A DNA stretch of 64,000 nucleotides, from sequence record PP434423.1; one strand, 5' to 3'. Positions within the stretch are counted from its first letter, which is position 1; each line of letters starts with the position of its first letter. The notes beneath the pieces are model-generated. The model saw only the letters and a list, made by a program, of their open reading frames with translations, made no database searches and was not told the origin of the DNA. The translations under genes were made by a program, and so were the position numbers. Source of the stretch: Escherichia phage 236Ecol005PP. Of the stretch, positions 31,551 through 33,229 are shown piece by piece.

Positions 31551-32147
31551 TTAATTACCACGGGCTGCATTAGCAACGGCGTAAGCGTACTGAACATTAG
31601 CGTCTTTAAACGTACCTTTAGAGGTATCTAGTTCTGCCTTAAAGCCGCCTTTAGCCATAACATCGGCAAATTCTTTACGGAAAGCCATTGCATCAAGACC
31701 TTTCCATGATGATTTGTGCTTGGCGAATTCAAGACCAGCGTAGTTGACAGCCTTAGCTAATTTATTATCAATAACCCATTTACCAGCTTTAGGTACAAAT
31801 ACCGGGCCTTTCTGTTTAGAGAATAGTTTTAAATTCCAGCGACGAAGGTCACCGTCAGCTTTAACAAAAGCTGCGTCCAAGTTACTAGCAACAACATCTT
31901 GGATATGGGCAAATTTAAGCCCATCAGCTTCAATATTTAGGTCGTTACGCCAGCGAAGTCCTTCCCAGGCGAAAGCTTTAAAGTCAGAAGCCTTTGTAGC
32001 TAAATAGCGTTCAATAGGAGCTGTTTTAGCGTCAAAGCCGTTTCCTATGCGGTCAACGCCGTTTCCTCGGTAAGTCCACTCATCTTTATTAATGCCTTTA
32101 GCCTTTTCCACAGAAGCTTCAGCGATAAATTCTTTATACGTTTTCAT
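31551..32147 (-). CDS. Internal protein (capsid-targeted), IPIII-like size
   Basis: 198 aa; N-terminal MKTYKEFIAEA capsid-targeting sequence; Lys/Ala-rich body. Confidence 0.6.
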   Translation of the reverse strand: MKTYKEFIAEASVEKAKGINKDEWTYRGNGVDRIGNGFDAKTAPIERYLATKASDFKAFAWEGLRWRNDLNIEADGLKFAHIQDVVASNLDAAFVKADGDLRRWNLKLFSKQKGPVFVPKAGKWVIDNKLAKAVNYAGLEFAKHKSSWKGLDAMAFRKEFADVMAKGGFKAELDTSKGTFKDANVQYAYAVANAARGN

Positions 32148-32186
32148 GTGTTTCCTTGTTTGTTTTGATAGAATAATTATATCATA

Positions 32187-32468
32187 TTAATACTTAAGCG
32201 TAAACTGTTTAAGCTTTACCGCCAGAAATAATTCCGAAGTTGTTAAAATCATATCCAATATCGTCACATCTACTTTAGGGCTTGCTACAACATAAGCAAT
32301 TTCACTACGTTTTGCATAGGTGTTTATTTCTCTACCATCGCCGCCTAGGAAAGAATACCCATTACGTTTTAATGAGCCAAAATCTTCGGCATCACCAACG
32401 AAAGCTTTAACTTTAAATTTGGGGCCTTTGGCATCTGCTTCAGCGATAAATTCTTGATACATTTTCAT
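32187..32468 (-). CDS. Internal protein (capsid-targeted)
   Basis: 93 aa; N-terminal MKMYQEFIAEA capsid-targeting sequence. Confidence 0.55.
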   Translation of the reverse strand: MKMYQEFIAEADAKGPKFKVKAFVGDAEDFGSLKRNGYSFLGGDGREINTYAKRSEIAYVVASPKVDVTILDMILTTSELFLAVKLKQFTLKY

Positions 32469-32474
32469 TTTTCC

Positions 32475-32888
32475 TTAGTAAATTGATTTACCATAGTATT
32501 TGTACCAAGTAGGGCGTTGAGCAATTTTTTCATCTAAGCGAGCTTGACTTATCGCAATGGACGCTTCGGACGGGACATAATTATTACGAAATTCGACAGG
32601 GATGTCGGAAATATCCTGGACAGTCGTGTCCTTGATTTTGAAACCACGTTTCAAACATTCAGCGATTAGCTCGATTTGACGTAAACGTAAAAATTCGAGT
32701 TTGTCGTAAAAGAATGTTACGTGACCTGTGCCTAAGATAAATGTTGGAGAGATTTTAAAATCCTTTACACGTTTACCGTTTTGAACATGTTTACGGACTG
32801 CACCAAATACGCGTGGTAATTCACGATACTCAGCCATAAGATGTTGGTCGGTCAATTCAGAAACAAGTGTTAAATTGATACGGGTCAT
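32475..32888 (-). CDS. denV: Endonuclease V (pyrimidine-dimer DNA glycosylase)
   Basis: 137 aa from [12 protein letters not shown]...; matches T4 DenV as recalled. Confidence 0.9.
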
Positions 32889-32915
32889 AATTTCCTCCAA
32901 GTAGTCGATGAATGT

Positions 32916-32944
32916 ATAGTATCAAAACCCTTGGAGGAAGTAAA
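32916..32944 (-). promoter_or_regulatory. T4-type early promoter upstream of denV
   Basis: minus TTTACT / 17 nt / TACTAT. Confidence 0.45.
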
Positions 32945-32947
32945 CAA

Positions 32948-33229
32948 CTATTTTTCTGAAGCGCCTGAAATATATTTTTCAAGACGTTGTTTCATCAGCG
33001 AGCCGTTCTTAGCGATTTCTTCCGGTTTATCGCACATACGCAACAAGGCTTCAAGCTTAACGATATCACTGGTGCGCTCAAATTTGCGAGTATCTATCTT
33101 ACTAGCAAGTTCAGAAATACGTGCTAATAGACTTTCAGCTTCAACCAAAGCTGCACCTAGCTTAGTTGCAAATGTGTCAGTAGCTTCGTTAAGAATAGAT
33201 TCTGATAAAAATTCACTATATGTTTTCAT
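32948..33229 (-). CDS. Internal protein (capsid-targeted)
   Basis: 93 aa from [11 protein letters not shown]; ATGA overlap with lysozyme stop. Confidence 0.55.

Follow-up and report, generated by a model that had tools for sequence, protein, structure and literature searches.

Three internal-protein genes in a T4/RB69 mosaic e-denV locus of Escherichia phage 236Ecol005PP

Internal proteins of T-even phages

The genes that we analyzed are related to the internal-protein (ip) genes of T4 and other T-even phages. The first 10 residues of T4 IPIII suffice as a capsid-targeting sequence (CTS): positions 4 and 7 determine targeting, positions 8 and 10 determine processing, and cleavage by the prohead protease, gp21, follows L/I-x-E (PMC9026906). 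A processed form in the mature head, and its ejection, are known for T4 IPI-III only (PMC9026906). The consensus of the field, expressed since at least 2010, is that internal proteins are injected anti-restriction factors (PMC3012670). Experiments showed that T4 Ip1, Ip2, and Ip3 inhibit one GmrSD subtype each, and that the target of Ip3 is GmrSD of the ECOR17 type (CLS_003/004) (PMC12373910). Without IPIII there is no growth on ECOR17, and a plasmid that supplies IPIII lacking its CTS restores growth (PMC9391042). A fourth CTS protein, the 77-residue Bas37_0260, inhibits McrBC (bioRxiv 10.1101/2025.11.20.689424).

Variable ip loci with a common leader were described in 1994 (Repoila et al., as cited in later papers). 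The class, its leader, the two variable loci, their shuffling, and the anti-restriction rationale are already known and published, and proteins of the three types considered below already carry the annotation of internal head protein in RB69 and in hundreds of genomes that came after it. The locus is of little discovery value and modest practical value.

Leaders and layout of the locus

We analyzed a stretch of 64,000 nucleotides (the window) from Escherichia phage 236Ecol005PP (PP434423.1). The window is from a Tequatrovirus, and the locus has 96-97% nucleotide identity to many Tequatrovirus records. An earlier note on this DNA had proposed that three ORFs around denV, which we call IPa, IPb, and IPc, begin with a capsid-targeting leader and have unrelated bodies. 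All three are present on the minus strand, at the positions given in the note (Table 1).

Table 1. Features of the two internal-protein loci, in window positions (a slash marks the predicted leader end)
Feature	Position	Strand	Description
Stem-loop AGGCC-N8-GGCCT	31531..31548	-	Directly past the ipIII stop, then ATTTAC
IPa	31551..32147	-	ipIII (Ip3) ortholog, 198 aa; leader MKTYKEFIAE/A
ipIII early promoter	32176..32204	-	TTTACG-17-TATAAT with upstream TG
IPb	32187..32468	-	93 aa; RB69 ORF125c family, frameshifted
denV	32475..32888	-	Endonuclease V, 137 aa; RB69-type allele; Pfam Pyr_excise
T4 early-promoter-type element	32916..32944	-	TTTACT-N17-TACTAT, between IPc and denV
IPc	32948..33229	-	Internal protein, 93 aa; RB69 ORF127c type
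Leader-coding direct repeat, 3 copies	32116-32147, 32437-32468, 33198..33229	-	75-94% identity to the reference copy
e	33226..33714	-	Lysozyme, 162 aa; Pfam Phage_lysozyme; stop overlaps IPc start
Two TATAAATA motifs, presumed late promoters	33728-33735, 33741-33748	-	Directly upstream of e
Early-promoter repeats, 49 nt	39715-39763, 40096-40144, 40432-40480		Flanking Ip7
Ip7	39768..40076	-	102 aa; leader MKTFKEFINE/A; 100% identical to RB32 Ip7
Ip9	40137..40409	-	90 aa; leader MKTFKEFINE/A; downstream of 57B; 87.8% identical to RB32 Ip9

The pattern MK[TM][YF]xEF[IL]xE occurs five times in the six-frame translation of the window, as compared to an analytic expectation of 1.6e-5, and it did not occur in any of 300 Markov simulations. 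Each copy opens an ORF of 90-198 residues on the transcribed strand. Besides IPa (MKTYKEFIAE), IPb (MKMYQEFIAE), and IPc, there are two leader-bearing ORFs beyond the original three, Ip9 and Ip7. All five leaders have the targeting determinants (tyrosine or phenylalanine at position 4, phenylalanine at position 7) as well as I or L at position 8 and E at position 10. These features fit the experimentally defined determinants of the CTS (PMC9026906). In T-even internal proteins, the propeptide ends in a gp21 motif (L/I-x-E) that lies 10-19 residues from the N-terminus; at residues 8-10, this motif reads IAE in both IPa and IPb, and LSE in IPc.

Past the leader, the three proteins seem to be unrelated. 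With the first 11 residues removed, no pairwise BLASTP comparison of the bodies gave a match better than E = 3, so the proposal that they share nothing beyond the leader holds at the level of sequence. All three ORFs match PHROG families of internal head/virion proteins, and none of the internal proteins has a match in Pfam or NCBIfam. IPa, IPb, and IPc all lie inside the variable IP locus e-denV-vs.8, and Ip9 and Ip7 lie in the 57B-tRNA.4 locus. The three are ip genes of the e-denV interval; T-even phages have two known hypervariable IP loci, and this interval is one of them. By synteny with T4, the genes for gp21 and for gp22/gp67/gp68 would lie beyond the end of the window; the annotation of Bas37, a related Tequatrovirus, includes genes for the prohead core, the protease, and the scaffold.

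The overlap of IPc with the lysozyme gene, also proposed earlier, is confirmed: the ATG of IPc is at 33229, and the plus strand reads TCAT at 33226-33229, which gives ATGA on the coding strand. The ORF lister extends this ORF to an upstream TTG at 33244; starting at the ATG yields the leader.

A mosaic of T4-type and RB69-type sequence

In the direction of transcription, the window has nudE, e, IPc, denV, IPb, and IPa, as compared to nudE, e, ipIII, ipII, and denV in T4. The earlier note was right that the order departs from that of T4, but the arrangement is not novel to this genome: RB69, which was sequenced in 2003, already has e-ORF127c-denV-ORF125c. In 73 phage records, 80% or more of the locus is covered, and T4, RB32, PP01, ime09, KarlGJung, and RB69 have six further arrangements of the same interval.

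The identity of successive tiles changes from T4-type to RB69-type inside e and returns to T4-type at the ipIII promoter. Between these points is an RB69-type block, made up of the 3' third of e, IPc, denV, and IPb, which is 94-100% identical per tile; the 5' two-thirds of e is T4-type. The denV product is 99.3% identical to that of RB69 and 91.2% identical to that of T4 (78% for the nucleotide sequence, to T4), and the ipII-denV segment of T4 is absent from the window. The C-terminus of the lysozyme tracks the presence of IPc: it is ...WKAYI in all of the examined genomes that have IPc and ...AYKNL in the examined genomes without it. We propose that homologous recombination replaced T4-type sequence with an RB69-type block (the 3' third of e, ORF127c, denV, and ORF125c), with a first crossover within e and a second at the ipIII promoter/leader, which is conserved. 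This exchange accounts for the non-T4 order. With its breakpoints in e and at the ip promoter/leader, the locus illustrates cleanly how a T4/RB69 mosaic is built.

How does this compare with the PeSL-type shuffling of cassettes described by Arbiol et al. (2010) and Comeau et al. (2014)? As in that system, T4 early-promoter elements lie at the borders of the cassettes in the window, a stem-loop follows ipIII, and one breakpoint coincides with the ipIII promoter/leader. The stem-loop and the sequence that follows it form a junction of terminator and early promoter of the PeSL-like kind (for the concept, see PMC2839356). Unlike PeSL shuffling, the other breakpoint lies in the conserved coding sequence of e, which is ordinary homologous recombination. 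Arbiol et al. (2010, PMC2839356) themselves consider the elements associated with T-even internal proteins to be analogues of PeSLs, not homologues. The leader-coding DNA is the sole family of direct repeats within the locus (22-30 of the first 33 nucleotides are identical between the three ip genes), and together with the early promoters at the cassette borders, this fits the shuffling model (Repoila et al., 1994; Arbiol et al., 2010, PMC2839356).

Early promoters are abundant in the window. The pattern TTTACW-N16-18-TAYWAT, which is based on a published consensus (PMC4122927), has 15 matches, as compared to 1.14 expected, and 14 of the 15 are on the minus strand.

The other promoter motif of the locus, TATAAATA, is not enriched across the window (12 found versus 11 expected). 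We take the two copies upstream of e to be late promoters because of their position and by comparison with the late promoters of T4 e. They probably also serve IPc, which is coupled to e.

The three proteins and their proposed roles

It is very probable that the three ORFs are ip genes in a recombinant locus and that their products belong to the injected anti-restriction class. By analogy with T4, the N-terminal CTS would bind the scaffolding core of the prohead, and gp21 would then cut after the glutamate of I/L-x-E, which is E10 in IPa and IPb. In the IPc family, including the orthologues and Ip5, E15 is invariant and E10 is not, and L/I-x-E at residues 13-15 is conserved, so the cut in IPc is most likely after E15. 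Many mature copies may stay in the head, as for the T4 internal proteins (about 360 copies per head). Ejection along with the DNA would place the inhibitor in the cell before any phage gene is expressed, where it could inhibit nucleases of the host that act against DNA with glucosyl-hydroxymethylcytosine. T4 IPI*, an inhibitor of GmrSD from E. coli CT596 whose structure has been solved, follows the same logic: its leader is a CTS, gp21 processes it, the head holds many copies of it, and these are ejected with the DNA to block a modification-dependent nuclease. However, the internal proteins of the window have no sequence similarity to IPI* past about the first 7 residues, and the propeptide of T4 IPI has 19 residues. 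Searches of PDB sequences with IPa, intact IPb, and IPc did not retrieve the IPI* structure; the best matches (E = 0.07) were to antibodies and an oxidase.

The earlier note's view of the leader as a packaging signal for injected anti-restriction proteins is borne out, but its description of all three as divergent bodies with unknown targets is not. It fails for IPa, which is T4 IPIII: the two are 88.9% identical over their full length (198 aligned columns, E = 5e-132 by BLASTP), and close homology of this kind is what the earlier note itself had set against its reading. IPa also matches phrog_5341 (E = 3e-115), and the exact sequence is annotated as internal protein III in phage 236Ecol005PP. 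IPa and T4 IPIII have the same type of 10-residue leader (MKTYxEFIAE/A) and the same neighborhood beside vs.8. They differ by a 6-residue insertion near residue 28 and by substitutions at about 11% of positions, and the IPa gene is downstream of denV, while T4 ipIII directly follows e. As an ortholog of Ip3, IPa would be expected to inhibit the two-gene GmrSD of the ECOR17 type.

For IPb, the description is weakened: the leader and the ORF are real, but this copy is broken at codon 68, and the family is intact elsewhere. One T is missing in that codon (at about 32265), as determined from DNA alignments and three-frame translations, so that residues 69-93 are out of frame; these last 25 residues read through the ipIII promoter. 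Residues 1-68 share 92.6% identity with RB69 ORF125c, and the match to phrog_2667 is confined to residues 1-66. Members of this family are found in Tequatrovirus, Mosigvirus, Gaprivervirus, and Gelderlandvirus, and RB69 ORF125c is in the same place as IPb, directly after denV. Intact members have 84-87 residues and end in ...DDIGYDFNNFGIISGG(K/E/Q)A. In the window IPb, this ending is replaced, and the conserved C-terminal 18 residues of the family are missing. We infer that IPb has lost its function: it would still enter the head but is probably inactive. The frameshift could be a sequencing error instead of a real mutation. This genome's copy is unfit to represent the ORF125c family, for which we saw no numbered Ip name in the database records.

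A functional IPb whose new tail has its own activity or regulation seems very unlikely to us. The frameshifted ORF does stay open for 93 codons with its leader and ribosome-binding site intact, and the same gene is frameshifted in different ways in Lutter, G2133, and Pu-Krd-SF7. But the positions of those frameshifts differ, as would be expected from decay or sequencing error and not from a selected variant, and the new tail, TILDMILTTSELFLAVKLKQFTLKY, is simply what the +1 frame yields across the conserved C-terminus and the ipIII promoter. The intact C-terminus is conserved across three genera (dN/dS about 0.1; 0.08-0.16 for the family). Furthermore, the exact 93-residue product is absent from a collection of 15 billion proteins, and the window's allele had no matches in IMG/VR, where a gapped pattern built from the window found the intact allele on two loci. 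We also considered whether the IPb body is a WG-type repeat. An exhaustive profile search with the IPb family retrieved three long proteins, each matching in 5-6 stretches, but Pfam assigns them to FG-GAP, to WG-repeat, and to another repeat protein, which are mutually unrelated. We therefore rejected these matches as sums of weak ones, and with them the idea of a WG-type body.

An intact divergent body remains for IPc alone, and even IPc belongs to a named family. It is 92.5% identical to RB69 ORF127c, 100% identical to ime09 YP_007004504, and 47.6% identical to RB32 Ip5 (over 84 residues, E = 2e-23). It matches phrog_3499 over its full length (85/85 positions, E = 1e-46), and a joint IPc/Ip5 profile retrieves UniProt entries named Ip5. 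Ip5 is known from T2, T6, RB15, RB32, and RB70 (UniProt Q38378; Repoila et al., 1994). It aligns with IPc along the whole length, and both have I/L-x-E at residues 13-15 and the motifs KLG.AL.EAE and EIAKNGS.MK.RLE. The gene for Ip5 proper follows 57B, at the ipI locus; that for IPc follows e, with the ATGA overlap. Judging from these alignments and positions, IPc is a paralogue of the Ip5 family at a different locus, not an orthologue, and the two may differ in specificity. The dN/dS ratio between IPc and Ip5 is 0.25; along with the lower values for the IPb family, this implies that these are real genes under purifying selection. The exact IPc sequence is present on 541 public contigs, so IPc stands out as an intact internal protein that is very common.

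Structure prediction gave few leads. From shallow alignments, AlphaFold2 modeled IPc as all-helical, with three helices (pLDDT 73, pTM 0.35), and intact IPb as mixed alpha/beta (pLDDT 56). The best match of the low-confidence IPc model to the PDB by Foldseek had E = 7.2. Neither model is strong enough to back a particular binding mode. We infer an anti-defense role for IPc: it is probably a helical protein that binds another first-response defense, most likely a subtype of type IV restriction enzyme.

Two broader alternatives bear on these roles. The internal proteins might be mainly structural, that is, basic DNA-associated fillers of the head or assembly factors that aid scaffold formation and the condensation of DNA, with no specific anti-defense target. 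In T4 IPIII mutants, head assembly runs at about half its normal rate and the burst is about 40% of normal (PMC9026906); internal proteins copurify with gp22, and about 360 copies of each contact the DNA in the head (PMC9026906; PMC3012670); and mature IPa is basic (pI 9.6). Mature IPc (near neutral, pI 6.3) and intact IPb (acidic, pI 4.9) are not basic, unlike the T4 internal proteins. The rescue of infection of ECOR17 by host-expressed IPIII that lacks the CTS implies that IPIII acts in the cytoplasm, and all three T4 internal proteins have specific GmrSD targets. Also, ip genes are dispensable on laboratory strains, and some Tequatrovirus genomes, such as KarlGJung, have no ip gene in the interval, which would be odd if there were a structural need. 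Overall, we consider a mainly structural role to be unlikely.

The other alternative accepts injection of inhibitors but not the type IV targets. IPc and the intact ORF125c family might inhibit defenses that are still unpaired with an inhibitor and are possibly not type IV, such as other first-response nucleases or sensors, and the IP loci would be general delivery sites for small anti-defense proteins of any kind. The body of Ip9 has a leaderless homologue of 72 residues in an unrelated phage, CR01 (Guernseyvirinae), so an IP body can be an ordinary free-standing phage gene; this comparison is what suggests that the leader is a portable tag on free-standing anti-defense genes. If so, the two IP loci would upgrade ordinary early anti-defense genes to prepackaged delivery. 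Profile searches did not find leaderless relatives of IPb or IPc, which argues against this idea. In its favor, the bodies have no sequence similarity to IPI*, and the fold search with the low-confidence IPc model revealed no shared fold. Also, ip4-10 gave no reproducible inhibition of additional GmrSD variants (Silas et al.), so a type IV target for Ip5-like proteins is unproven. Against it, all of the CTS proteins with a known target (Ip1, Ip2, Ip3, and Bas37_0260) act on type IV restriction enzymes, and type IV targeting fits phages whose modified DNA is the main target for the host at entry. We view delivery against defenses other than type IV as doubtful, if somewhat less so than a structural role, and prefer type IV restriction as the target of the class.

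A published genetic screen provides some information about Ip5. In the HIDEN-SEQ supplement, disruption of bas37_0261, which is 100% identical to RB32 Ip5, has a log2 fold change of -2.09 (adjusted p about 0) on CFT073 versus K-12. This suggests that Ip5 matters on E. coli CFT073, on which the authors of the screen did not remark. The upstream gene 57B was also depleted (-1.56), so the signal for Ip5 might reflect polarity or another cause.

Finally, at the second IP locus, the window does not contain ipI; Ip9 and Ip7 occupy that position. Neither of them is the McrBC inhibitor Bas37_0260, which is a different protein and has no counterpart in the window. Ip7 is flanked by repeats that carry early promoters (Table 1).

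Leader-bearing genes around e and denV

Three genes of the window, which we call IPa, IPb, and IPc, begin with the capsid-targeting leader of T4-like internal proteins (IPs), MK(T/M)Y-x-EF(I/L)-x-E. This finding is already known, since the IP class, its leader, its two loci, more than 30 IP variants, promoter-associated shuffling, and an anti-restriction rationale have been published (PMC3012670, PMC2839356, PMC9026906, PMC12373910), and the specific proteins are on record as well: most are labelled "internal head protein," and they are present in RB69 (2003) and hundreds of genomes since. 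All genes at 31551-33714 are on the minus strand. The locus is 96-97% identical in nucleotides to several Tequatrovirus records, and of 919 matching records, 73 cover at least 80% of it; judging from its sequence, the window comes from a T4-like phage.

Genes of the e-denV locus, in transcription order, and leader-bearing genes of the second locus
Feature	Coordinates	Strand	Description
nudE	34207..33752	-	first
e (lysozyme)	33714..33226	-	second
IPc	33229..32948	-	third; 93-aa ORF
denV (endonuclease V)	32888..32475	-	fourth
IPb	32468..32187	-	fifth; 93-aa ORF
IPa	32147..31551	-	sixth; 198-aa ORF
vs.8-like gene		-	last
Ip9	40137..40409	-	leader-bearing; 88% identical to RB32 Ip9
Ip7	39768..40076	-	leader-bearing; 100% identical to RB32 Ip7

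The earlier note had claimed that the three proteins share a leader and nothing beyond it. In its six-frame translation, the window has five copies of the strict pattern MK[TM][YF]xEF[IL]xE (about 1.6e-5 expected, and none across 300 simulated sequences), and all five copies open ORFs of 90-198 amino acids on the transcribed strand. We then cut the first 11 residues from these five proteins and from T4 IPI, IPII, and IPIII and compared the bodies with BLASTP: except for IPa with T4 IPIII, no pair scored better than about E = 0.1. The bodies of the window's IPs are unrelated at the sequence level. Given the leader statistics and this comparison, the observation is confirmed in all its parts.

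In T4 IPIII, packaging needs no more than the first 10 residues; targeting depends on residues 4 and 7 and processing on residues 8 and 10, and the prohead protease gp21 cleaves after L/I-x-E (PMC9026906). All five window leaders follow these rules (IPa begins MKTYKEFIAE), although in IPc the site is more probably at residues 13-15. Mature IPc probably begins at A16 rather than S11, because residues 8-10 vary (LSE in IPc, YQN in RB69 ORF127c, LTV in P0033, and ATK in Ip5) and the L/I-x-E at residues 13-15 is invariant among the relatives compared.

The earlier note had set its proposal of divergent effectors against close homology to T4 IPII or IPIII, and for the IPa sequence such homology was found: the whole of IPa aligns with T4 IPIII at 88.9% identity, apart from a single 6-residue insertion. 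It also matches phrog_5341 (E = 3e-115), and an identical protein is annotated as "internal protein III" in phage 236Ecol005PP. On sequence grounds, IPa is T4 IPIII. IPc matches phrog_3499 ("internal head protein") across the full profile; it is 100% identical to ime09 YP_007004504, 92.5% identical to RB69 ORF127c, and 47.6% identical to Ip5 of RB32, T2, and RB70, and its exact sequence is present on 541 contigs.

IPb matches phrog_2667 ("internal head protein") over residues 1-66 only. Members of its family (IME340, CJ20, STML-198, and RB69 ORF125c were aligned) are 84-87 amino acids long and end in ...VDVDDIGYDFNNFGIISGG(K/E/Q)A. Because one T is missing from codon 68 of the window's gene, its last 25 residues are the +1 reading of the conserved tail, continuing into the ipIII promoter. 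The exact 93-aa frameshifted product was not found in a 15-billion-protein collection, and this allele had no match in IMG/VR, where both copies of the gene that we found are the intact allele. Other frameshifts, mostly at short homopolymer runs, break IPb-family genes in at least three Tequatrovirus records (Lutter, 2839-3094; G2133; and Pu-Krd-SF7), where the broken genes are annotated as one or two short ORFs. These recurrent frameshifts could reflect either repeated gene decay within the genus or repeated sequencing error.

Purifying selection is acting on the IPb and IPc families, both of which are real genes: dN/dS among IPb-family members is 0.08-0.16, and between IPc and Ip5 it is 0.25. 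In an exhaustive profile search with IPb, the genuine relatives were all small proteins with a leader-like sequence at their start. Three repeat proteins from this search were judged spurious. Structure models of IPc (three helices, pLDDT 73, pTM 0.35) and intact IPb (mixed alpha/beta, pLDDT 56) are weak, had no fold match, and seem to inform little.

An RB69-type segment within T4-type sequence

As the earlier note stated, the gene order differs from that of T4: e-IPc-denV-IPb-IPa in the window versus e, ipIII, ipII, denV, vs.8. The order in RB69 is e, ORF127c, denV, ORF125c, ORF124c, ORF123c, vs.8. The start codon of IPc overlaps the lysozyme stop as ATGA, and e and ORF127c of RB69 overlap in the same way.

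We compared 80-nt tiles of the window with T4 and RB69. Between 34300 and about 33440, the sequence is T4-type (95-99% identity, versus only 60-75% for RB69). It switches to RB69-type within the last third of e (about 33440-33360), and between about 33400 and 32200 (IPc, denV, IPb, and the 3' end of e) it is 94-100% identical to RB69, while the T4 counterpart is absent or below 83% identity. It returns to T4-type at the ipIII promoter and leader (about 32200-32150); the window's ipIII is T4-type and has no counterpart in RB69. Thus, a 1.2-kb RB69 (Mosigvirus)-type segment (about 32200..33400) is set within T4-type sequence. For denV, protein identity is 99.3% to RB69 and 91% to T4, and the ipII-denV segment of T4 (64939-65816) is missing from between ipIII and vs.8.

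The C terminus of lysozyme tracks the downstream gene. It is ...WKAYI in all five examined genomes with an IPc-type gene (...TGTWKAYI, 162 aa, in the IPc carriers: the window, Lutter, ime09, and Pu-Krd-SF4; 157 aa as annotated in RB69) and ...AYKNL (164 aa) in all four examined genomes without one (T4, RB32, PP01, and KarlGJung). Across Tequatrovirus, the e-denV interval itself is highly polymorphic: RB32 and T2 have e-Ip4 and no denV, PP01 has e-Ip10-IpIV, and ime09 has e-Ip5-like-denV-Ip4. Since KarlGJung (MZ501089, region 3353-4323) has none, the number of ip genes between e and denV ranges from zero to three among close relatives.

Direct repeats in the locus are limited to a 32-nt leader-coding segment in three copies. 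The T4/PST early-promoter consensus, TTTACW-N17-TAYWAT, has 15 matches in the window versus 1.1 expected and is strongly enriched on the transcribed strand; matches lie at cassette borders (32916-32944, 39726, 40107, and 40443). A near-consensus early promoter precedes ipIII and a stem-loop follows it. This pattern of repeats, promoters, and mosaicism is the shuffling mechanism that Repoila et al. 1994 proposed for the two IP loci and that Arbiol et al. 2010 (PMC2839356) and Comeau et al. 2014 discuss.

After ORF125c, RB69 has two more leader-bearing ORFs, ORF124c (5848-6120; MKTYKEFIAES..., a lookalike of PP01 Ip10) and ORF123c (5450-5779; MKTYQEFIAA...). Both are absent from the window, which has T4-type ipIII in their place. 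Residue 10 of ORF123c is Ala, not Glu, so cleavage at the usual leader site may fail.

Expression and predicted functions

Lacking a separate promoter and coupled to e through the ATGA overlap, IPc is probably made late, along with lysozyme. Immediately upstream of e are two TATAAATA motifs; because this motif is not enriched window-wide, the late timing is something we infer. Late synthesis would fit a prohead component. IPb starts 6 nt after denV, with a Shine-Dalgarno sequence overlapping the denV stop; a separate early-type promoter serves ipIII.

The IP leader binds the scaffolding core and is then trimmed by gp21; the head retains about 360 copies of each IP, which exit with the DNA (PMC9026906, PMC3012670). 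Ip1, Ip2, and Ip3 of T4 inhibit GmrSD-type type IV restriction systems, a different one each and without cross-protection (PMC12373910). Infection of ECOR17 requires IPIII, and leaderless IPIII from a plasmid works (PMC9391042). Another protein with the leader, Bas37_0260, inhibits McrBC (bioRxiv 10.1101/2025.11.20.689424); we did not find a counterpart in the window. The earlier note's suggestion of injected anti-defence proteins is the field's working model, in line with the published anti-restriction rationale.

We infer that IPa would inhibit a GmrSD of the ECOR17 type. IPb would probably be packaged, putatively without activity. IPc would be injected and inhibit a first-response defence; another type IV enzyme is the likeliest target. 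However, Silas et al. tested ip4-10 against extra GmrSD variants and saw no reproducible inhibition (PMC12373910), which counts against a type IV target for IPc as an Ip5-family member. A possible first functional lead for this family comes from Bas37 (KarlGJung), whose bas37_0261 (12864-13121) is 100% identical to RB32 Ip5. In the HIDEN-SEQ transposon screen, its disruption gave a log2FC of -2.09 on E. coli CFT073 versus K-12 (adjusted p ~0; Data S3), and the upstream gene 57B gave -1.56; the authors leave the depletion of bas37_0261 undiscussed (bioRxiv 10.1101/2025.11.20.689424).

The second IP locus

Ip9 and Ip7 lie directly downstream of 57B, at the position of T4 ipI, which is absent there. 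A 49-nt early-promoter repeat, present in three copies (at 39715, 40096, and 40432), flanks them.

By tblastn, residues 19-90 of Ip9 align with the whole of a 72-aa hypothetical protein from Escherichia phage CR01 (OR061068.1, 1507-1725; 48.6% identity). CR01 is a 45-kb Guernseyvirinae phage, and its protein begins at the body, without the leader. Therefore, an IP body can be an ordinary free-standing gene in an unrelated phage. This relationship suggests that a leader was joined to a free-standing gene that already existed, or else that the free-standing form lost its leader. Other unrelated phages, among them Enterococcus phage Efm 3-10 and several large Salmonella phages (152-163 kb), have weaker matches to the Ip9 body. 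For IPb and IPc, no leaderless relatives were found, including in the exhaustive IPb profile search.

The window also has a cluster of ten tRNA genes at 37787..38742 (minus strand): Arg, Asn, Tyr, Met(CAT), Thr, Ser, Pro, Gly, Leu, and Gln. Of these, Asn and Tyr are extra relative to T4, which carries eight here. The gene with the CAT anticodon occupies the spot annotated as tRNA-Ile in T4 and RB32.
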